NCBI GenBank assembly: GCA_037442105.1
Contig: JBBIQV010000007.1
Coordinates: forward strand, 62,001 to 100,753
DNA from: Nitrospiraceae bacterium
Lineage (GTDB): Bacteria > Nitrospirota > Nitrospiria > Nitrospirales > Nitrospiraceae
Reading direction: 5' to 3'
DNA: 38,753 nt
In this document: positions 29,503 to 38,753 of the stretch, in pieces
Numbering within the stretch: position 1 is the stretch's first letter
Layout of the letters: each line of letters opens with the position of its first letter
Translations under genes and position numbers: made by a program
The notes under the pieces: generated by a model
Seen by the model: the letters and a program-made list of their open reading frames with translations, nothing else
What the model was told of the DNA's origin: nothing
Database searches by the model: none

Positions 29503-30663
29503 TCAGTGCGATGGAATGCCCCCGTCCTCTCGCGGGCATCCAGCCGGAGGACTTGCTGCAGCCGGCAGTTCGGCATCACCGTATACGTAAGCGGCGATCG
29601 CTTTCGCAAGGTCGGTAGAGAACTCTTGCTGCATGACGCGAATCGCTTTCGCCGTCGCTTCGCGGGTCGTGAGGTGCCCCTCCTTCCCGCCTTTCGAGAC
29701 GGCACCGACGACTCGTTGGGTCGCCAGTTCCTGAATCACGAAGTCGCTGCACCAGCGGACGTATTTGAATTGCGGATCGCTGATATCGATGGGCCACAGC
29801 CGAACCAGCCCCTTGGCCAGCAGGTCCGGAACAGGCCCTGTCTCGCCCCCCGACGGAGGTTCTGTTCCGGGGCGCCGGCTTGTGACCGATAACCCCGCCC
29901 GGATCAATCCCTCCATCAGCGCGCGTTGAAGCGGCTCGGTCTGATCGCCGGTTATCTCAACGGCGACGGCGAGATTCGTGGCAAGGAATTGCTCGAGCTC
30001 GGTCGTCAGTTCCGCGACCCGGTAGGAGGCAGGCTGTCCTTGGCCGCTGGTTCGGATCACCCGCAAGTCGGCGTTGTAGGCCTCGCGCGTCACAAGATTC
30101 CTGGCGGCGCGTTTCAGGTTGCGGACACGGGCAAGTTTATCCTGGCTCTGGCGCGCCTCGGCAACTTCGGTCTCGATCTTGCCATCCAACTCCCGGATTC
30201 GTTCCATCATCGCTGCCTCGGCCTGGCCGCGATTCATGCCGGCGAGGGCATAGTGCTGCCCTTTTCGACGGTCGTACCACGTATCGAGGATTTGCACGTT
30301 CTCGAGGACCTTGTCGGTGGAGACGCGCGTCACATTGTCCAGAGTCAACCGCCGTTCCGTGCTGGCCTGGCCGCGGTTCTCGATGACAAGATAGGATTCC
30401 CAATCCTTGGCCTGCGCGGAGATCTCCGCTTTGAAGACCCTCGAGACGGCGGCATAGGCTCGTTCTGTGGCCATCTCCCGGTTCTCTGCCTGCCCGACAC
30501 CCAAGAGATATTGGCTGGCAGGAAAGTCCTGACTGGCGCCATCGAGCCAAGCCGGCTTCGCCTTGGCACCAAATGAACTGCATCCAGCCAGCACCGGCAG
30601 TGCGATCACCGCCAGTGTTGCAACGACCCAACGTGCGCCGATGACGGCTGCGCGGACGTTCAC
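29503..30663 (-). CDS. LPP20-family lipoprotein
   Basis: Lipobox LAGC, KPAWL, YLLGVG.A...A..RA. Confidence 0.75.
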   Translation of the reverse strand: MNVRAAVIGARWVVATLAVIALPVLAGCSSFGAKAKPAWLDGASQDFPASQYLLGVGQAENREMATERAYAAVSRVFKAEISAQAKDWESYLVIENRGQASTERRLTLDNVTRVSTDKVLENVQILDTWYDRRKGQHYALAGMNRGQAEAAMMERIRELDGKIETEVAEARQSQDKLARVRNLKRAARNLVTREAYNADLRVIRTSGQGQPASYRVAELTTELEQFLATNLAVAVEITGDQTEPLQRALMEGLIRAGLSVTSRRPGTEPPSGGETGPVPDLLAKGLVRLWPIDISDPQFKYVRWCSDFVIQELATQRVVGAVSKGGKEGHLTTREATAKAIRVMQQEFSTDLAKAIAAYVYGDAELPAAASPPAGCPREDGGIPSH

Positions 30664-32159
30664 GGCATCACCCGCTCAATCAAAAACTTGGTCTGTCCTG
30701 CTTGGAGCGTCAACGAGAGCGCCACGTCTCCTTTAAGACTTTCCCCTTGCCGGCCAACCGGAGTGATGCGCGCTTCATAGTCGCCGGGGGCGACCCAGAC
30801 TCGCGCCAGGTGGATTTCGTCCGGCAACGTCCGCCAGCTCCGCTTATCTGCCTCTTCTGAGGCCACGGCGAGACCCTTGGCGAAGAGTCCCACCAAGAGG
30901 CCGACCAACGCAGCGTTGTCGTGTCCTGCCGCTGCTTGAGCTCCTCGAGTGGCGGCTTCGGCGGCGGAGAATTTGACCGCGGCACGGGCGAGGGCTTTGG
31001 TGGTGATGCCGGGAAGCCGATCGGACAAACTTTTTTCAGCCAGCGCAGAGATGTTTTGAGCCAACTCGGTTTTTGCCGTCACCGTCCCGTCGCTCTTTGC
31101 AATAAGGTTAATATGGTCGTACGCTACGTGGGTTTTTGGGACGGTCAGTTTCGGTAATGCCACACGGACCACGCGACCGTTGAGCCCGTAGAGTACGCTA
31201 TCGACCGCTCGCTGTTCGCGGCGGTTGTGCGACGGCCCTCCCAACCCCCGATTCAAGAGCACGAGTTGAACCGCGTCCAAGCTGATCGGAAGATCGATGA
31301 ATTGATCCTCCTTTTGAGGCGCGCGGCCATTATAACTAATCACAACCACCTGAGCGAACTGCAATTGCTCCCGGGAGGATTGCCAGATCGTTTCCGGGAA
31401 TTTCTGGCGGTACTCTTCGAACTCCGTCGTCAGATGGAGCGTCTCCGCGGTTCGCAGAAGGTCGGCTCGCAGTGCGGCAGGCACCGGCGTTCGTGACCAG
31501 CCCCGTACCATCTCATAGGCTTCTGCGGCTTTGCGATACGCAATGAAGGCGTTGTTGAAATCTCCCGTCGCCTCGTACAAGATGCCGGTCAGGTAACGAG
31601 CAAACCCGTCGTCGCGATAGCCTTCTTGGTTTTGGACCTTGTCGGCAATCACGTTCAGACGGTTGTCGATGCGCCGAGCCTCCACGAGCGCCTCGTTCAG
31701 TTGCCCCATCATGGCGTAGTTCAAGGCCTTCAAGACATTGACCATCACCTGCTCGTAAGGATCACCTTCGTAAGGCAGCGCCGTATCGTTTGTGAAGAAT
31801 GCAGCCGTTTCAGTCCGAATCTTTCGCGTATACAGCCTCTCGATTTCTTCTTCCGCCTGTCCAAGTACCGCATTGCTCTGGCTGTATTGGCCGGCGAGGT
31901 GCAGCGTCATGCCTCGATCCATCCCGTACAGGACACGGCTCTTGGAGCCGTAATCTTTTTCTGCTTGCTCGACGATCGCGTCGGCGCGCTTCGGATCGTT
32001 GGCACGAAGACTGTCGTCGATGAGAGCGTATCGATTAACGGAAGGCCCACAGCCTACCAGGGTGGCGAAAAGCAGAACCGCGGCCGGTAGAAGGGCCCAC
32101 GTGGCGAGAAGACCGCCTGCACTGGGGCAAGCGCATCCGTCTGTGGTGGAGGGGCTCAA
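30660..32159 (-). CDS. COG3014-family TPR-like lipoprotein
   Basis: Lipobox LVGC, PYEGDPYEQVM, ALVEARR, ADKRSWRTLP. Confidence 0.8.
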   Translation of the reverse strand: MSPSTTDGCACPSAGGLLATWALLPAAVLLFATLVGCGPSVNRYALIDDSLRANDPKRADAIVEQAEKDYGSKSRVLYGMDRGMTLHLAGQYSQSNAVLGQAEEEIERLYTRKIRTETAAFFTNDTALPYEGDPYEQVMVNVLKALNYAMMGQLNEALVEARRIDNRLNVIADKVQNQEGYRDDGFARYLTGILYEATGDFNNAFIAYRKAAEAYEMVRGWSRTPVPAALRADLLRTAETLHLTTEFEEYRQKFPETIWQSSREQLQFAQVVVISYNGRAPQKEDQFIDLPISLDAVQLVLLNRGLGGPSHNRREQRAVDSVLYGLNGRVVRVALPKLTVPKTHVAYDHINLIAKSDGTVTAKTELAQNISALAEKSLSDRLPGITTKALARAAVKFSAAEAATRGAQAAAGHDNAALVGLLVGLFAKGLAVASEEADKRSWRTLPDEIHLARVWVAPGDYEARITPVGRQGESLKGDVALSLTLQAGQTKFLIERVMP

Positions 32160-32174
32160 CAGAGCACGTAGAGC

Positions 32175-32804
32175 CTAAAAGATTGTTCGTTTCCGCTCGA
32201 CGACTTTCTTGATCTTTTTCTGGCCGTACCAGGACTTCACGTTATTTTCCAGATCAACCATCTCCAGGTCAACCTGATAGTAGACGGCTTTCGTGCCGTC
32301 CGCTTCGTCCAGGATCGTTGAAATGGTGCCCTTCATCATATAGTCGGCGCCCAACTCTTTGCCGGGAGCTTTCTGGGTATCCTCACGGGCATGGATGGCC
32401 TGCTCCTTCCGCTCCTCGCGGATCTCCTCCCGCTCCCCTTTGCCGGCTACAAAGGTCACCTTCTGAGAATTCGTCAGCTCCCGCTGCAAGTCGGTGACGA
32501 AGGTTTGCACGTTAATGTGCTCGTGACTGCGATTCATCACAGTGCCGACCACAACGACCGGTTGGCGCCGTTTGGAGCGCGTGAAGTTATCGAGCCACGG
32601 ATTGCCGAGCGCTTCCTTTACCATGGCTTCGGCGACCATCCGTGAGTCGGTGTCGTTCCACCGGCCGCTCAAATCGGTGACCACGCCGGAGTCTACCCGC
32701 GTCACTTTGGTTTCAGCGCTGCAGCCGCCGAGCCAGGCAAACACGACTAGGAGACCGATTACGGCTCCGCCCCAGCCGGCTTGGCTTATCCCTGAATTCC
32801 GCAT
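32175..32804 (-). CDS. lpoB: Penicillin-binding protein activator LpoB family lipoprotein
   Basis: Lipobox LGGC, DLSGRWNDTD, NRSHEHI, GADYMMKGTI, YYQVDLEMVDL; GAGGAGG RBS before ATG 32804. Confidence 0.75.
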   Translation of the reverse strand: MRNSGISQAGWGGAVIGLLVVFAWLGGCSAETKVTRVDSGVVTDLSGRWNDTDSRMVAEAMVKEALGNPWLDNFTRSKRRQPVVVVGTVMNRSHEHINVQTFVTDLQRELTNSQKVTFVAGKGEREEIREERKEQAIHAREDTQKAPGKELGADYMMKGTISTILDEADGTKAVYYQVDLEMVDLENNVKSWYGQKKIKKVVERKRTIF

Positions 32805-32848
32805 GCGTCCCTCCTCTTTCTGCGCCATACTCAAATCGCCGGATCTGG

Positions 32849-33415
32849 TCAGCGGGTGGCGCGCTTGTCTTCTTCCTTCTCAAGACGCTCGAAGAGGCGA
32901 TCCGCGTTCTTTCTCACGAAGTCACGCACCTGGGCGTTGAGTTCCTTCGCCTGCTCCAGATTGTTCTTCATGTCTTCCAGGCTGAGTTTGGCAAGCACGT
33001 AATACGTATTGCTTTTCTCGTCCTTATACCGGTCGATCGGCCGAACGCCGCTGAGCGTCGTGGTGGTGACGGTCTTGATTGCCCGCTCCACGTTCTGCTC
33101 TTCGGTGTTTCGCGTAAAATCGCCCGCCGTCGTGGACGCAGAGTAATCCCGCATCAAGTATCCCGTGTACGTTTCGAAGTTCTTGGCGATCTCGGCCCGT
33201 GCGCGATTCTCGGCGGTATCCCAAGCCAACGGTTCGTTCTTGATGCCGGTCACGGACCCGACGCCGTAAAATGCCCTATCATTCTTGTCGTTGTAGGCGC
33301 CGGAGCCCTTCTTAACCCAGGTTGGAGGTCCCCCGCAGGCCGTCAAGCCGATCAGGAGAATGATGGCAAGCCCGCTTCCGGTGAGTCTGGCGAGAAGCCC
33401 CTGTGATGCGCGCAT
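32849..33415 (-). CDS. LPP20-family lipoprotein
   Basis: AAGGAGG RBS, lipobox LTAC, PPTWV, FYGVGS, AENRARAEIA. Confidence 0.8.
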   Translation of the reverse strand: MRASQGLLARLTGSGLAIILLIGLTACGGPPTWVKKGSGAYNDKNDRAFYGVGSVTGIKNEPLAWDTAENRARAEIAKNFETYTGYLMRDYSASTTAGDFTRNTEEQNVERAIKTVTTTTLSGVRPIDRYKDEKSNTYYVLAKLSLEDMKNNLEQAKELNAQVRDFVRKNADRLFERLEKEEDKRATR

Positions 33416-33527
33416 AGGTTCCTCCTTCGTGTGTAGATGCTCGTGATGTGAGAGGAAAAGTCTGGTTGCCGGCGCGTAATCTTTCATGGAAAGGCCTTGA
33501 GAGAACAGTCCAATACCGTCAAAAAAC

Positions 33528-33556
33528 ATGCTAGCATGCGGCTGGACCTCAGTCAA
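33528..33556 (-). promoter_or_regulatory. Putative sigma70 promoter of the lipoprotein operon
   Basis: TTGACT-17 nt-TAGCAT with extended -10 TGn. Confidence 0.55.
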
Positions 33557-33644
33557 CGCGACGACTGCCGAACCGTTGACAGTGACCGGCTGATCCCGGA
33601 ATATTTTTTCACAGTAAACAAGGGACGCTAAGGAGGACACACCG

Positions 33645-33815
33645 GTGGCGGAAGTTCGGATTGAAGACGGCATCATTCGGGTGGTCGAACTCGACGTGCA
33701 AGACCCCAAAGCGGCTGCGGTCTTGGCCGAGTATCCTCAAGTCCGCTGGGCTGAGATCACGAGGCGGGCGCTCAAGATCGGCTTGGGATATTTGAAGGGC
33801 GGGGCGAAGGACTGA
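33645..33815 (+). CDS. Small protein (56 aa), not in ORF track
   Basis: TAAGGAGG RBS then GTG: MAEVRIEDGIIRVVELDVQDPKAAAVLAEYPQVRWAEITRRALKIGLGYLKGGAKD*; upstream TTGACA at 33576. Confidence 0.75.
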   Translation: MAEVRIEDGIIRVVELDVQDPKAAAVLAEYPQVRWAEITRRALKIGLGYLKGGAKD

Positions 33816-33835: not shown

Positions 33836-35218
33836 CTACTTCTCCGGCGATGGCGCACTGCCGGCCTGTTCGACCGCGGCTCTAGCACGAGCCGAGTCGC
33901 CGCCGAGTTCTAAATAACGGCGGAAGGCTTCGACGGATTTCTTTTCATCCTTCAAGTTGTCGGCATAGAGCGTGCCGAGAGAGTAATAAACATCGGTATA
34001 CGTCGGATTCACGGTCAGGGCTTGCAGCAAGGCGCGCTCCCCTTCGGAAAACTCGCCGCGCTTTTCGAGTATCAACCCCAGGGTGTAATAAGAATCGGGA
34101 TTCTGCGGAGCGTAATGCACCGCCAGCTTCGCCGTCGCTAACGCTTCATCCAGATCCGGAAGAACTTCCAGGCGGACATAACTCTTGAGGACATACGCGT
34201 CGCCGAACGATGGATTGTACTGAATCGCTTTGTTGAGCCGTTCCAGCGCTTCCTCGGCAGACTTTTGCTGCTGGAGAAGGGCGAAGGCCTGCTCATAGTG
34301 GATTTTCGCGGCCTGCGCCCGCTCCGCATCGGTCTTCGGTTCCTTTCCAAACGTGAAAGCGGATTTCTTGCCTTCGATCAGAATCGTATCTCCGTCTCCA
34401 TCAAGCCATGCGAATCGCGGGTGCTGGGTGTTACCCGTGGCAGACTCGACCTGTTGCTGGACGTAGGTGCCCAACTCGCTGGCCATCAGCCAACCGTTTT
34501 TGTTTTGATCCGCCGAACCGTTCAGCCCAGCCACAAGCGCCGCAATAAAGGCGCTCCGTCCATCCTTCTGGACGAGGGATTCGTCTTTGTCAGCCGCAGT
34601 CAACACCTGCACCGCGCGCTTCTCGGTTTCCTCTTCCGGGGCGGCACGCCCTTCGAGTGAGAGCTGTTGCGCAGCGGTGACCTCCCATCCTCTGACGGCA
34701 GCCTCGAAGACGAACAAGGTATGCTTCGACATCGACCGCCGGCTGAACTCTTTGAGATGATCGAACGTGACAGCCTTCGAAGGATTGTTCAGTTGGGCAT
34801 CCCATGGGACCAAATAGCCGAGTTCCTTCCCCTGCGCGTCGAGGGTTGTCCTGGCGTGACCGGCGAAGAAAATGATGACGCGATCCTGCCGCCCGACTTT
34901 TCGAGGCAAGTAGTCATCGAGTACCTGCTGCAAGCGACGAAACTTGGCATCCTCGTCGTAGATTTCTACGATGTCTTCGAACCCAAGCTTTCTCAGGGCC
35001 TCGGCAACGGTTTTGGCATCCTCTACCGCGCCCGGCACCTTGGGAGCCAGCAGGTAGTTCTCGATGCCGATAATGACGGCCCAGGATTTGTAATACAGGC
35101 CTTCGGGCTTTCCAAGTTGAGCGTCGGAGACTTGCGGCAAGGACAACCCAAGCAGAAGGATCACAAGAAAGACGGGAATCAGGCGCGCGGCAAGGATCCG
35201 ATCGGCTTGTCGAGGCAT
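33836..35218 (-). CDS. Exported caspase-like (peptidase C14) domain plus TPR repeats; catalytic Cys absent
   Basis: SWAVIIGIENY, DAKTVAEAL, IIFFAGH, GYLVPWDA, ADQNKNGWLMASELG; C-terminal TPRs; signal peptide. Confidence 0.85.
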   Translation of the reverse strand: MPRQADRILAARLIPVFLVILLLGLSLPQVSDAQLGKPEGLYYKSWAVIIGIENYLLAPKVPGAVEDAKTVAEALRKLGFEDIVEIYDEDAKFRRLQQVLDDYLPRKVGRQDRVIIFFAGHARTTLDAQGKELGYLVPWDAQLNNPSKAVTFDHLKEFSRRSMSKHTLFVFEAAVRGWEVTAAQQLSLEGRAAPEEETEKRAVQVLTAADKDESLVQKDGRSAFIAALVAGLNGSADQNKNGWLMASELGTYVQQQVESATGNTQHPRFAWLDGDGDTILIEGKKSAFTFGKEPKTDAERAQAAKIHYEQAFALLQQQKSAEEALERLNKAIQYNPSFGDAYVLKSYVRLEVLPDLDEALATAKLAVHYAPQNPDSYYTLGLILEKRGEFSEGERALLQALTVNPTYTDVYYSLGTLYADNLKDEKKSVEAFRRYLELGGDSARARAAVEQAGSAPSPEK

Positions 35219-35258
35219 CGCTGGAGTAGGACCTTCGTAAATTGCCGACAGCAAAATC

Positions 35259-35288
35259 AGCCTACCCTTGCGCGCCTTCCACTGTCAA
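35259..35288 (-). promoter_or_regulatory. Putative sigma70 promoter of the caspase-like gene
   Basis: TTGACA-18 nt-TAGGCT. Confidence 0.5.
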
Positions 35289-35366
35289 GGAAGGTACACG
35301 GAGCACGGGCACGCGTAGCCCAGAATCTCCAATGGTTGGCCTGTGATGCCGGTTTTGAAGGTATGG

Positions 35367-35395
35367 TTGCAGTTCCAGACCTCCTTTATCATAAT
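35367..35395 (+). promoter_or_regulatory. Putative sigma70 promoter of acs
   Basis: TTGCAG-17 nt-CATAAT. Confidence 0.5.
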
Positions 35396-35454
35396 GGCTC
35401 CCGTATCTCAGGCGCAGCGTCACGGTGCAGTGATTTCGCGAAGGAGTGGAAACG

Positions 35455-37347
35455 ATGGAAGAAAAAATCGACACCCTGCTCAAGCAAGGAAGAGTCATCC
35501 ACCCAACCGAGCGGACGAAAGCCAACGCCTACATCACGGACTATGAGGCGGCATACCGGAAGTCGATAGCGGATCCCGAAGGGTTCTGGAGCAGCGTGGC
35601 GAAGGAATTGGAATGGTTCACGCCCTGGAACCGTGTCTTAGAGTGGAACTACCCTTGGGCCAAGTGGTTCCTCGGCGCCACGTGCAACATTTCCTACAAT
35701 TGCCTGGATCGGCACGTCAAAACCTGGCGAAAAAACAAGGTCGCCGTCATTTGGGTGGGGGAAAACGGCGAAGAGCGCATTTTCACGTATGGCGAACTCT
35801 TCCGGCAGGTCAATCGCTGTGCGAATGCGCTCAAGGCGCTCGGGCTGCGTAAGGGCGATCGTGTCACGATCTATCTTCCCAAGATTCCCGAGCAAATCGT
35901 CGCGATGCTCGCCTGCGCCAGACTCGGCGTGATCCATAGCGTAGTCTATTCAGGTTTCAGCGCACCGGCGCTCGCCAGCCGCATCCAGGATGCGGAAGCG
36001 CGAGTCGTCATCACGGCGGACGTCGGCTATGACCGTGGCAAAACCATCAATCTCAAAGACGTGGTGGACCAGGCGCTCATCACGTGCGGCACGGTGGAAA
36101 CCGTTGTGGTGGTCCGGCGCGAGAAACCCGGCGTGACCTTATCGGCTCCCAAAGAAATCGACTGGGAAGATTGGCTGAAGGGTGAGAAGCCGGTCTGTGA
36201 GGCAGAGCGGCTGGATGCGGAGACACCTTTATATATCCTTTATACCTCGGGGACGACCGGCAAGCCCAAAGGCGTCGTGCACGTGCACGGTGGGTACATG
36301 GTCGGGACCTACATCACGACGAAGTACGTGTTCGATCTCAAGGAAGAGGATGTCTATTTCTGCGTGGCTGATCCTGGCTGGGTCACCGGCCACAGCTACA
36401 TTGTGTATGGGCCGCTGCTCAACGGCGCGACGATTTTGACGGCGGAGGGCAAGCCGGACTATCCCAACCCGGGACGCTGGTGGGAGTTGATCGAACGGTA
36501 CGGCGTGTCGATCTTCTATACGACCCCGACCGCGATCCGCCTGTTGATGAAGTACGGTGAGGAATGGCCCAAGAAGTCCGATCTCTCCACCTTGCGGGTG
36601 TTGGGAAGCGTCGGCGAGCCGATCAATCCGGAAGCGTGGGAATGGTTCCACCGCGCGACCGGCAGCGACAAGCCGATCATGGACACCTGGTGGCAAACGG
36701 AGACGGGAATGATTCTCGTCACCCCCCTCCCCTGCGTCCCGTTGAAGCCAGGCTCAGCCACGAGACCATTTCTCGGCATCGAAGCAGACGTAGTCGATCG
36801 AGAGGGAAAGAGTCTTCCTGCAAATGCCGGTGGCTTTGCGGTGATCAAGAAACCATGGCCCTCCATGATGCGGACGATCTACAAGGACCCGGATCGTTAC
36901 AAGGTCTATTGGAACACGATCCCGAACGCGTACACGGCGGGCGACGTGTGCCGGAAGGACGACGACGGCTACATGTGGTTTATGGGCCGTGCGGACGACG
37001 TCATCAAAGTCGCCGGCAATCGCATCGGCACGGCCGAAGTGGAAAGCGCGCTGGTCAGCCATCCGGCCGTGGCGGAAGCGGCGGTCATCGGCAAGCCGCA
37101 CAAGACGGTGGGAGAATCGATCAAAGCGTTTGTCATTCTGAAACAGGGCCAGCAGCAGGACGGGCGAGAACTGATCCAATCCATGAAGGACCATGTCTTG
37201 AAAGAACTGGGCAAAATCGCCGTCCCGCAGGAAATCGACATCGTGCCATCGCTGCCCAAAACGCGCTCCGGCAAGATCATGCGGCGGGTGCTGAAGGCCA
37301 AAGAGCTCGGACAAGATCCCGGCGATATCTCGACCATCGAGGAATAA
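35455..37347 (+). CDS. acs: Acetyl-CoA synthetase (acetate-CoA ligase)
   Basis: YTSGTTGKPKG, GWVTGHSY, SVGEPINPEAW, DTWWQTETG, PKTRSGKIMRR; AAGGAG RBS before ATG 35455. Confidence 0.97.
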   Translation: MEEKIDTLLKQGRVIHPTERTKANAYITDYEAAYRKSIADPEGFWSSVAKELEWFTPWNRVLEWNYPWAKWFLGATCNISYNCLDRHVKTWRKNKVAVIWVGENGEERIFTYGELFRQVNRCANALKALGLRKGDRVTIYLPKIPEQIVAMLACARLGVIHSVVYSGFSAPALASRIQDAEARVVITADVGYDRGKTINLKDVVDQALITCGTVETVVVVRREKPGVTLSAPKEIDWEDWLKGEKPVCEAERLDAETPLYILYTSGTTGKPKGVVHVHGGYMVGTYITTKYVFDLKEEDVYFCVADPGWVTGHSYIVYGPLLNGATILTAEGKPDYPNPGRWWELIERYGVSIFYTTPTAIRLLMKYGEEWPKKSDLSTLRVLGSVGEPINPEAWEWFHRATGSDKPIMDTWWQTETGMILVTPLPCVPLKPGSATRPFLGIEADVVDREGKSLPANAGGFAVIKKPWPSMMRTIYKDPDRYKVYWNTIPNAYTAGDVCRKDDDGYMWFMGRADDVIKVAGNRIGTAEVESALVSHPAVAEAAVIGKPHKTVGESIKAFVILKQGQQQDGRELIQSMKDHVLKELGKIAVPQEIDIVPSLPKTRSGKIMRRVLKAKELGQDPGDISTIEE

Positions 37348-37396
37348 GAGACGGCTGGTCTGCCGAGCCGTTGGGAGAGAAGAAGGTGAGCAGAAA

Positions 37397-37618
37397 ATGT
37401 ATGGAGCAAGAAAACCCGGCGAGCCGATTTATCTGAGACGCCACATGGTCGCGCTCGCCCTGGCGGTGGCCTTGCCGATTGTGCTGTTCCAACTCTACAA
37501 AATCTACGTCGGGCCAATCGGTCTCGGCGTCCAGATGGGAATCGGCTTGGTGGTTTCCGTCGTCGCTGGAACCGTGCTCTATCTCACCTGCAGGTCCTCT
37601 GTGCAGAACCAGCCCTAG
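37397..37618 (+). CDS. Small two-TM membrane protein
   Basis: Two hydrophobic segments; AAGGTG RBS-like element; follows acs. Confidence 0.65.
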   Translation: MYGARKPGEPIYLRRHMVALALAVALPIVLFQLYKIYVGPIGLGVQMGIGLVVSVVAGTVLYLTCRSSVQNQP

Positions 37619-37747
37619 CCACCTTTGGGGAACCTGCTAGTTTCCGCGCCAGGAGATCGTGCGGTCGCTCGCTGAAATTCAGAACATCCCCACTTTCCTC
37701 ACCCCTCGCCTGACCTTCAATGACGGACGGCATCGTCCCCTCCAGCC

Positions 37748-37806
37748 TCATAACACTTGGCGTGAGCTGCTCGCTTCGGCGAGTCGGCTCCATGCCTTCG
37801 TTAGGC
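37748..37806 (-). other. attC site (59 bp) closing the hicBA cassette
   Basis: Minus strand: R'' GCCTAAC-GAAGG-L'' CATGGAGC-CGACTCGCCGAAGCGAGCA-L' GCTCACG-CCAAGT-R' GTTATGA; begins 1 nt after the hicA stop. Confidence 0.88.
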
Positions 37807-37807
37807 T

Positions 37808-37996
37808 TCACTTGATTCTTGGGACCCCAAGATCCTTGCAGATCTTACGTGCCAAGTCGTCATCGATTTCGTTATGCCTCGGAACTGCCGAACGTTTGTT
37901 CTGGCTGGGATTATGCCACCACGAATGCCGACCGCCTTCCCTCAGCAACTCACACTGATGCTTCCTGAGATGACGAAGAAGTTCTTCTCGTTTCAT
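37808..37996 (-). CDS. hicA: HicA family toxin
   Basis: 62 aa, LLREGGRHSWW..., SAVPRHNEI...ARKICKDL. Confidence 0.92.
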   Translation of the reverse strand: MKREELLRHLRKHQCELLREGGRHSWWHNPSQNKRSAVPRHNEIDDDLARKICKDLGVPRIK

Positions 37997-38205
37997 ACGG
38001 CGATAGGCTCTTCTTGAAAGCCCTCGCCTGCCGCCTCGAGCGCCTCACGGCGATTGAACTCCAGCGCCTCTTGGAGCGTGGCCTTCAGAGTCTCGAGTAA
38101 TTCCTCTTTGGTCCCCTCCTGGCAATTGACGCCTGGCACCTCCTCAATCCATCCGATCCACCACGGACCAGACTGCTTAATGACTGCTGTGTAAGTTTCC
38201 CGCAT
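37993..38205 (-). CDS. hicB: HicB family antitoxin (short form)
   Basis: YTAVIKQSGPWWIGWIEEVPGVNCQEGTKEELLETLK; GGGAGG RBS; ATGA overlap with hicA. Confidence 0.92.
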   Translation of the reverse strand: MRETYTAVIKQSGPWWIGWIEEVPGVNCQEGTKEELLETLKATLQEALEFNRREALEAAGEGFQEEPIAV

Positions 38206-38233
38206 GCAAACCTCCCATTGGTTGTTGCTCATG

Positions 38234-38251
38234 AGCCGAACGCTTAGGCAT
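38234..38251 (-). other. Right-half attC remnant (partial L', spacer, R')
   Basis: Minus strand ATGCC-TAAGC-GTTCGGC(TCA). GTTCGGCTCA is near-complementary to TGAAGCCTAAC at the other end of the hicBA cassette. Confidence 0.65.
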
Positions 38252-38363
38252 CGACACAGCTCAAAAACTCCTCCCCCAAACCGATCCGCCGCCCCTCGTA
38301 CCAGGCGTGCGCCTCTGCGACATCTTGCTCGGCCTCCGGCGCAACGATCAACTTAGCGGCCAT
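38244..38363 (-). pseudogene. Truncated RelE/ParE family toxin (39 aa)
   Basis: MAAKLIVAPEAEQDVAEAHAWYEGRRIGLGEEFLSCVDA* is a ParE-like N-terminus that overlaps the antitoxin end and stops at the attC remnant. Confidence 0.85.
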
Positions 38364-38577
38364 CGCGACTTCGGACTCTTCGTTTGACTTCTTCCCACGT
38401 GAGTCCGGAGGCCGGGCTTGTCATCAGGCGGGCCTTTCTCCGGGCCAGCTCTTCCTTTTGCCAGTCATGAACTGGGACCGCTTGGGGAGTGGCCGCAAGG
38501 TCATCCCACAAGTCCTCGACGAGCTGAAGTTTTTCTGACGGACTCAGATCAAAGATCGAGGTATTGGTTGGGCTCAT
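38353..38577 (-). CDS. Putative addiction module antitoxin (TIGR02574-like)
   Basis: LSPSEKLQLVEDLWDDL...WQKEELARR...TWEEVKRRV; AGGAGG RBS before ATG 38577. Confidence 0.9.
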   Translation of the reverse strand: MSPTNTSIFDLSPSEKLQLVEDLWDDLAATPQAVPVHDWQKEELARRKARLMTSPASGLTWEEVKRRVRSRDGR

Positions 38578-38624
38578 CTGAAATCCTCCTGCAATGGCGT
38601 TCAAGCATGACGAATCATTCTGCT

Positions 38625-38688
38625 GCCGAATGACCCCGCTAAGCGGCGGTGCGCTTGCGCGCCGTCCGGCTTGAGCGGGTAGTGAGAC
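38625..38688 (-). other. attC site (64 bp) with mutated core triplets
   Basis: Minus strand: GTCTCAC-TACCC-GCTCAAGC-CGGACGGCGCGCAAGCGCACCGCC-GCTTAGC-GGGGTC-ATTCGGC. The L boxes pair with one extra base; AAC is changed to CAC and GTT to ATT. Confidence 0.8.
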
Positions 38689-38752
38689 GCCGAGAGGAAC
38701 GTGCCACCTTCAGGAGGGAGCGCAAAGCCTCGTTCACCGATGTCGAATCGCG
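38639..38752 (-). CDS. C-terminus of a probable BrnA-like antitoxin (partial; reads into attC)
   Basis: ...RDSTSVNEALRSLLKVARSSRRLTTRSSRTARKRTAA*. The DS.SVNEALR.L motif resembles antitoxins paired with BrnT toxins; only 37 residues are visible. Confidence 0.6.
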   Translation of the reverse strand, partial: RDSTSVNEALRSLLKVARSSRRLTTRSSRTARKRTAA

Positions 38753-38753
38753 G

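Follow-up and report, generated by a model that had tools for sequence, protein, structure and literature searches.

The window analysed here, a stretch of 38,753 bp, forms the right-hand end of contig C7 in a 2.8 Mb genome (62 contigs, 87% complete), and its last base, 38753, is the contig terminus, where an array of small minus-strand genes runs off. The host flank of this array is formed by acs, encoding an acetate-CoA ligase (35446-37347, plus strand; TIGR02188, 872 bits against a cut-off of 725), and by a small conserved ORF of 73 codons behind it (37397-37618, plus strand), which lies outside the array. The 73-aa product is hydrophobic and gave no family in a Pfam search; DNA matches to the ORF were found in 21 of 64 stretches from relatives. 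The acs gene is 73-79% identical to its counterparts in five genomes named Nitrospira, Nitrospiraceae or Nitrospirales, close to the 75-80% seen among genomes of the same family, which points to a host that is probably a Nitrospira-family bacterium and bears out, at family level, the probable Nitrospira of the initial annotation. On the other side of acs, the minus strand carries a cluster of LPP20, TPR and LpoB-family lipoprotein genes (29503-33709), adjoined by a caspase-TPR gene (33836-35254).

To locate attC sites, we used a covariance model trained on 17 sites, none of them from the window (11 from integrons of relatives and 6 from other contigs of the same genome). Over the whole window it returned 11 matches at E-values up to 5, the E-values being rough. 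A 59-bp site at 37748-37806 ranked first (32.2 bits, E 3e-6) and a 64-bp site at 38625-38688 second (22.4 bits, E 1.2e-3); the third-best match reached only 13.2 bits. Both sites had been proposed in the initial annotation, and their coordinates and their 7-5-8-variable-7-6-7 spacing were confirmed. They lie on the minus strand, co-oriented with all genes of the array. The 59-bp site, which closes a hicBA cassette and is the last attC of the array, is canonical: its boxes on the minus strand are R'' GCCTAAC, L'' CATGGAGC, L' GCTCACG and R' GTTATGA, with 6 of 7 positions pairing between the L boxes and 5 of 7 between the R boxes, and the AAC/GTT core triplets are present. Its bottom strand folds with a z-score of -2.68 (4 of 200 shuffles folded as well), and a near-identical site occurs in G144, a complete genome of another genus. 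The 64-bp site is degenerate. Its L stem is intact (7 of 7 positions pair) and its bottom strand folds with a z-score of -3.16 (1 of 200 shuffles as good), but its R boxes pair at only 3 of 7 positions and both core triplets are changed, R'' ending in CAC instead of AAC and R' starting with ATT instead of GTT, a decay that the initial annotation had not recorded. It is overlapped by the end of the adjacent gene, whose frame runs through the site, and its R boxes vary among the 14 matching genomes out of 250 others searched. As cleavage is described to occur in the AAC triplet of the paired R box, where the triplet matters for micro-homology rather than as sequence (PMC5027507), the CAC/ATT triplets predict that the 64-bp site recombines poorly.

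Of the half site that had been suggested at about 38234-38251, a 13-bp remnant stands (38235-38247, minus strand), consisting of a 6-nt spacer and an R' box, GTTCGGC, and thus keeping only GTT of the core triplets. The remnant has no covariance-model match and no hairpin, and its region did not fold above chance in the shuffle test (z -0.96). Rfam returned no matches in 35000-38753, which says nothing about a DNA site. A scan by fixed attC rules was discarded in favour of the covariance model: most of its 168 genome-wide candidates were chance matches, and its AAC/GTT requirement made it overlook the 64-bp site. By model, box parse and fold, the integron-type attC array proposed for this locus is real.

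Between the remnant and the 59-bp site lies hicBA, the sole complete toxin-antitoxin (TA) pair in view among the three modules of the array. The hicA toxin gene (37808-37996, minus strand; 62 aa) is intact and was identified by Pfam (PF07927, E 6.8e-11) and by phrog_353, annotated 'toxin'. The gene preceding it (37993-38205, minus strand; 70 aa, with an alternative start at 38232) encodes a short HicB-type antitoxin. The Atlas clusters nearest to it (0.96) carry the automatic name HicB, its Pfam matches to UPF0150/DUF1902 are sub-threshold, and tblastn matched it in 19 of 19 hicBA loci, most matches covering the same 70 aa. PDB sequence searches were uninformative for both proteins (best E 0.055 for HicB and 0.3 for HicA). 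The two genes overlap by ATGA. With hicB upstream of hicA, overlapping genes and a HicB-type gene of 70 aa (class range 63-103 codons) without an HTH or RHH DNA-binding domain match, the pair has the features of class 2 hicBA. The HicBA module named in the initial annotation is thus supported by Pfam for HicA and by Atlas neighbours, gene order, size and overlap for HicB.

The hicBA cassette was matched in 21 of 300 other genomes. In G144, it is 94.9% identical over 495 bp, compared with 79.9% over 308 bp for the 3' end of acs, and this identity runs from the R' of the half site to the R' of the 59-bp site, that is, between the G^TT points. As the G144 copy is cut at the crossover points, both hicBA boundaries are validated, and the comparison shows hicBA to be a mobile cassette, transferred between genera as one unit with those points as its limits. 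In G144, the cassette ends with the sixth of ten attC matches behind a co-oriented intI, and its array neighbours include Abi_C, HNH, transposase, PemK and esterase genes (5 of the 11 ORFs examined had matches). Since hicBA is located mid-array there, it is not inherently terminal. The hicB start lies at most 36 bp past the crossover, and a promoter scan of 37350-38753 found no sigma-70 match where 0.4 would be expected, a crude and weak test; given the lack of a promoter match, hicBA is predicted to depend on read-through transcription.

The second module consists of an intact addiction-module antitoxin gene (38353-38577, minus strand, with an alternative TTG start at 38604; PF09720, E 2.3e-18, and TIGR02574) and a parE toxin fragment (38244-38363, minus strand) which retains 39 of about 99 codons and is fused to the attC remnant, in agreement with the antitoxin and ParE fragment described initially. 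ParE was identified through homologues. A parE match was found at 64 of 80 related loci, of which 46 read at least 97 aa (38 exactly 99) and 18 were shorter, either broken or offset by the script; the two intact homologues tested match Pfam ParE_toxin. DNA identity to intact parE homologues stops at 38248, the start of the attC remnant, whereas identity to the G144 hicBA cassette starts within the remnant. An intact toxin is absent behind the antitoxin here. For the half site, a single deletion fusing parE with the attC spacer is the simplest origin; alternatively, IntI may have excised at a G^AT position within parE, in combination with a second small deletion, or R'' may have collapsed onto R'. 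An attC match was found near only 6 of the 80 addiction-antitoxin loci, and the module is therefore often no recognisable cassette. A plasmid search gave two weak addiction-module matches.

The third module is represented by the 3' tail of a gene (38639-38753, minus strand) that is cut by the contig end; 32 of its 36 residues are identical to a gene at locus L141 in a relative. That homologue sits behind a Pfam BrnT gene, brnT lies directly upstream in both L141 and L144, and in L141 the pair is preceded by an attC site. In the genome studied here, the brnT partner toxin gene would be off-contig. The BrnA-like tail of the initial annotation therefore stands by position, as the gene behind BrnT, but not by family: no Pfam or PHROG match was found, Atlas gives 'hypothetical protein', and the label BrnA is positional. 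No second copies of the three TA modules were found in the source genome.

We next consider the integrase. A profile search found no intI on C7. Elsewhere in the source genome, two genes passed TIGR02249 (cut-off 265), an intact one on contig C39 and one on C1 that is cut by the contig end; intI remnants were present on C35 and C28. The C39 IntI (470.7 bits) has an open frame and contains what we take to be the catalytic motifs of the R-H-R-H-Y type. The end of C39 has the order MFS, ribE, intI and 180 bp (attI), where the names MFS and ribE are our presumptive assignments by recognition from sequence. The last 211 bp of C39 match 86 of 201 genomes among the matches listed. At the 29 best loci elsewhere, the match reaches the junction and its GTT in 25, with unrelated sequence beyond, and an attC match follows downstream in 16. 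Because it is conserved up to GTT and variable thereafter in 25 of 29 loci, the C39 end reads as an attI at the 3' end of intI; in relatives, intI is likewise co-oriented with downstream attC sites. Two further features of this platform were observed. An inverted repeat of ∼20 bp, conserved in relatives, brackets ∼110 bp between the intI stop and attI (G000:C39:24950-25095), and both the C39 IntI (G000:C39:23652-24929) and the C1-end IntI have an N-terminal extension of ∼100 aa before the SAM-like domain.

When 201 genomes were searched for ribE and acs, both genes were found in at least 120 and on the same contig in 97 among the matches listed. In 94 of these 97, the two genes converge at a distance of no more than 30 kb, the spacer ranging between -2 and 26,266 bp; it is 400 bp or less in 21 of the 94, the interval thus being empty in many relatives. 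The C39 attI and the C7 cassettes point the same way along the ribE-acs axis. From these data we infer that C7 and C39 are the two ends of one ribE-acs locus. The ends of the two contigs do not overlap, which implies a gap with missing cassettes, and the join itself rests on synteny. The small contig C60, a candidate for this gap, was discarded because it overlaps C35 by 55 bp. Evidence against the linkage comes from the second intI at the C1 end and from the other array ends in this genome, on C10, C12 and C41. The initial annotation had placed the distal end of the array beside acs, where the last attC indeed lies, and attI/intI beyond base 38753, where ribE-acs synteny would place those of C39.

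The ribE-acs interval was surveyed in 64 stretches from 61 genomes, 40 of which were picked for long spacers or known attI matches, so that frequencies are inflated and kin are not independent. Matches to attI occurred in 14 of 64 stretches, all directed toward acs like the cassettes of the window, and attC matches in 9 of 65 stretches had the same direction, with the opposite direction in G015, which speaks against the proposed layout. No full intI was found in the interval among the 61 relatives examined, and 3' remnants were present in two. None of the TA modules of the window recurs at the interval in the 64 stretches; different cassettes were found instead, in line with the variable content that had been expected downstream of acs. 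Pfam was run on 150 of 196 ORFs from 21 intervals, and many of the 150 had no match. Genes close behind attI include TIR (two loci), CAP12-TIR with AbiGi (one locus) and DUF3644, one DUF3644 gene matching PADLOC PDC-S19, and TA genes (HigB, MazE/PIN, DUF433/DUF5615, nucleotidyltransferase/HepT) occur at various positions. In 6 of the 14 attI-bearing stretches, higA or higBA directly precedes attI. At L009, L024, L196, L200, L203 and L205, from three genera, the attI behind higA/higBA is trimmed to its last 70 bp and higA/higBA takes the position of intI on C39. The interval of G001, of the same genus as the source genome, comprises higA, a trimmed attI, a large unrelated gene and higBA. Duplicated ribE 3' ends were seen inside the interval at L186, L189, L193, L210, L214, L219 and L221, which suggests insertion by recombination at the gene end.

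Genome-wide, the covariance model gave 12 matches on 9 contigs of the source genome, 6 of them being training sites. The C12 end (G000:C12:63500-70066, L049) is a TA-dense array end with BrnT, TumE/HVO_A0114 and ParE-like genes, two strong and three weak attC matches, and also non-TA genes and a transposase; the cassettes of C28 and C31 are not TA. The C35 end together with C60, and C28:24700-27200, are platforms in which only intI 3' remnants precede the cassettes. The intI-3'/attI segment (G000:C39:24899-25109; loci L156-L184) often has at least 4-5 matches per genome among the 86 of 201. By comparison, intI scored over the cut-off in 9 of 61 genomes, a different sample from the 201 used for attI. 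Within 1.5 kb upstream of the 29 best attI loci, intI was absent from 20, a short 3' remnant was seen in 5, a long partial gene in 2 and a full gene in 2. Copies of attI without intI are widespread in the host family. Around 12 solo-attI loci share a 60-bp left flank, further upstream sequence being unrelated except in one pair. L179 (G142:C16) and L172 (G336:C21) each have an attC site, scoring 47.5 bits in the former and decayed in the latter, from whose crossover point a short stretch without genes leads to a terminal attI; it looks as though attI had travelled like a cassette. These observations could reflect a dispersed network, in which many intI-less attI platforms per genome, some arriving as gene-less attC-to-attI units, depend on one or two integrases acting in trans; ribE-acs would be a shared hotspot where TA genes bracket defence-type cassettes and higBA takes the integrase position after intI loss, and the window would represent the rare intI-bearing state with a decaying TA tail. 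As a whole, we regard this scheme as possible but somewhat doubtful.

Because IntI places incoming cassettes at attI, those farthest from it are generally the oldest of an array. The three TA modules are thus probably the oldest cassettes of a complete integron headed by the C39 intI-attI, seen at its acs-side end and predicted to be locked by decay of two of its three attC sites. According to this model, IntI would have inserted cassettes singly at attI, pushing earlier ones toward acs, and the TA modules would have persisted longest. A deletion may have taken the 3' part of parE together with most of its attC, and the 64-bp site would have lost its core triplets through point changes. The three cassettes would now seldom be excised by normal attC x attC recombination, and old TA cassettes may be in the course of being fixed in the genome as their attC sites decay. 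Degenerate arrays have been proposed as a step to fixed cassette genes (PMC4889954; 10.1101/2022.09.11.507474). The view of the window as a special, all-TA array did not hold up: the contig breaks off after just three visible modules, which accounts for the apparent all-TA composition, and both the other arrays of this genome and the corresponding locus in relatives contain TA alongside non-TA cassettes.

The initial annotation had left the choice between a chromosomal integron and a CALIN. Were the array a CALIN, or had its cassettes each inserted separately at secondary (attG) sites, it would be unlinked to the C39 integrase. The spread of attC matches over 9 contigs and the lack of a full intI at the interval in the relatives examined would fit such a reading, and insertion into the genome at GWT sites has been described (10.1101/2022.09.11.507474). 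However, the C39 attI lies directly behind ribE, the conserved neighbour of acs, the strand agreement is exact, and split integrons are reported to mimic CALINs in draft genomes (PMC9024848). We therefore consider unlinked insertions very unlikely; the distal end of a complete integron is the probable part of the initial alternative, and a CALIN would probably be an assembly artefact.

Two functional readings of the TA modules had also been offered. As a stabilising terminus, they would actively kill cells that lose or over-excise the array, as shown for promoter-containing TA cassettes in Vibrio (10.1101/2022.08.03.502626). Three TA families follow one another, hicBA is intact and TA genes are common toward the acs side in relatives too, but ParE is truncated, two attC sites are decayed, the promoter scan gave no match (albeit as a weak test) and in G144 the same hicBA occupies the sixth of ten positions. 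An active terminus of this kind appears unlikely on balance, although a stabilising role, past or partial, can coexist with a locked distal end of an integron. A bank of anti-phage cassettes seems more improbable still. Relatives do carry TIR, CAP12-TIR, AbiGi, Abi_C and DUF3644/PDC-S19 genes near attI, integrons have been described as defence banks (10.1101/2024.07.02.601686) and a defence role was proposed for HicA (10.1101/2023.12.08.570793). In the window, however, none of four proteins matched PADLOC, nor did either of two BrnT-pair homologues; a bank also needs excisable cassettes, whereas the sites here are decayed, and the proximal cassettes, the position of defence-type genes in relatives, lie off-contig. 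For hicBA itself, a defence role may apply.

We found no paper in the open-access literature on the ribE-acs locus or on dispersed attI copies in the host family. In the IntegronFinder 2.0 study (PMC9024848), two CALINs were all that was reported for the phylum Nitrospira, compared with the complete co-oriented integrons of relatives (for example G144 with its ten attC matches) and the recurrent ribE-acs platform. If the dispersed-attI reading is true, most insertion platforms of these probable nitrifiers escape tools that search for intI and attC alone. The family-wide excess of attI over intI is a lead worth following.

Several known systems resemble parts of this locus. Class 2 hicBA as described in 10.1101/2023.12.08.570793 likewise has hicB before hicA, overlapping genes and a short HicB without a recognisable DNA-binding domain; here, however, hicBA travels as an integron cassette, and the word 'integron' is absent from the main text of that paper. 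As the class is stated there to be experimentally untested, the cassette provides a clean, recently mobile example of it. The Treponema-type 'inverted integrase' (PMC3607928, PMC4889954) also runs toward an attI at its 3' end with cassettes on the same strand, as on C39, in G144 and in other relatives, but the present host belongs to a different phylum, there are several platforms per genome and the linkage to the array is inferred. Small type II TA modules bounded by attC inside an array are shared with the sedentary chromosomal integrons of Vibrio (10.1101/2022.08.03.502626); in contrast to these, which are defined by more than 10 cassettes, three modules are visible here before the contig end, the attC sites are mutually dissimilar and two are decayed, one toxin is truncated and no promoter was matched. 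The Xanthomonas integron at ilvD (10.1101/2025.06.18.660453) likewise occupies a fixed chromosomal position behind a metabolic gene, its cassettes vary, intI is frequently lost and further arrays occur elsewhere, whereas here the site is ribE-acs, is empty in many relatives and often has higBA before a trimmed attI. Degenerate or deleted attC sites fixing cassette genes recall CALIN/SALIN elements and cassette domestication (PMC4889954; 10.1101/2022.09.11.507474), except that an intact intI-attI probably heads the array of the window. Overall, TA cassettes in chromosomal integrons and the decay of old attC sites have already been described, and in that respect the window is ordinary; its value is that of a map point, a known arrangement being newly mapped here in a probable Nitrospira-family bacterium.
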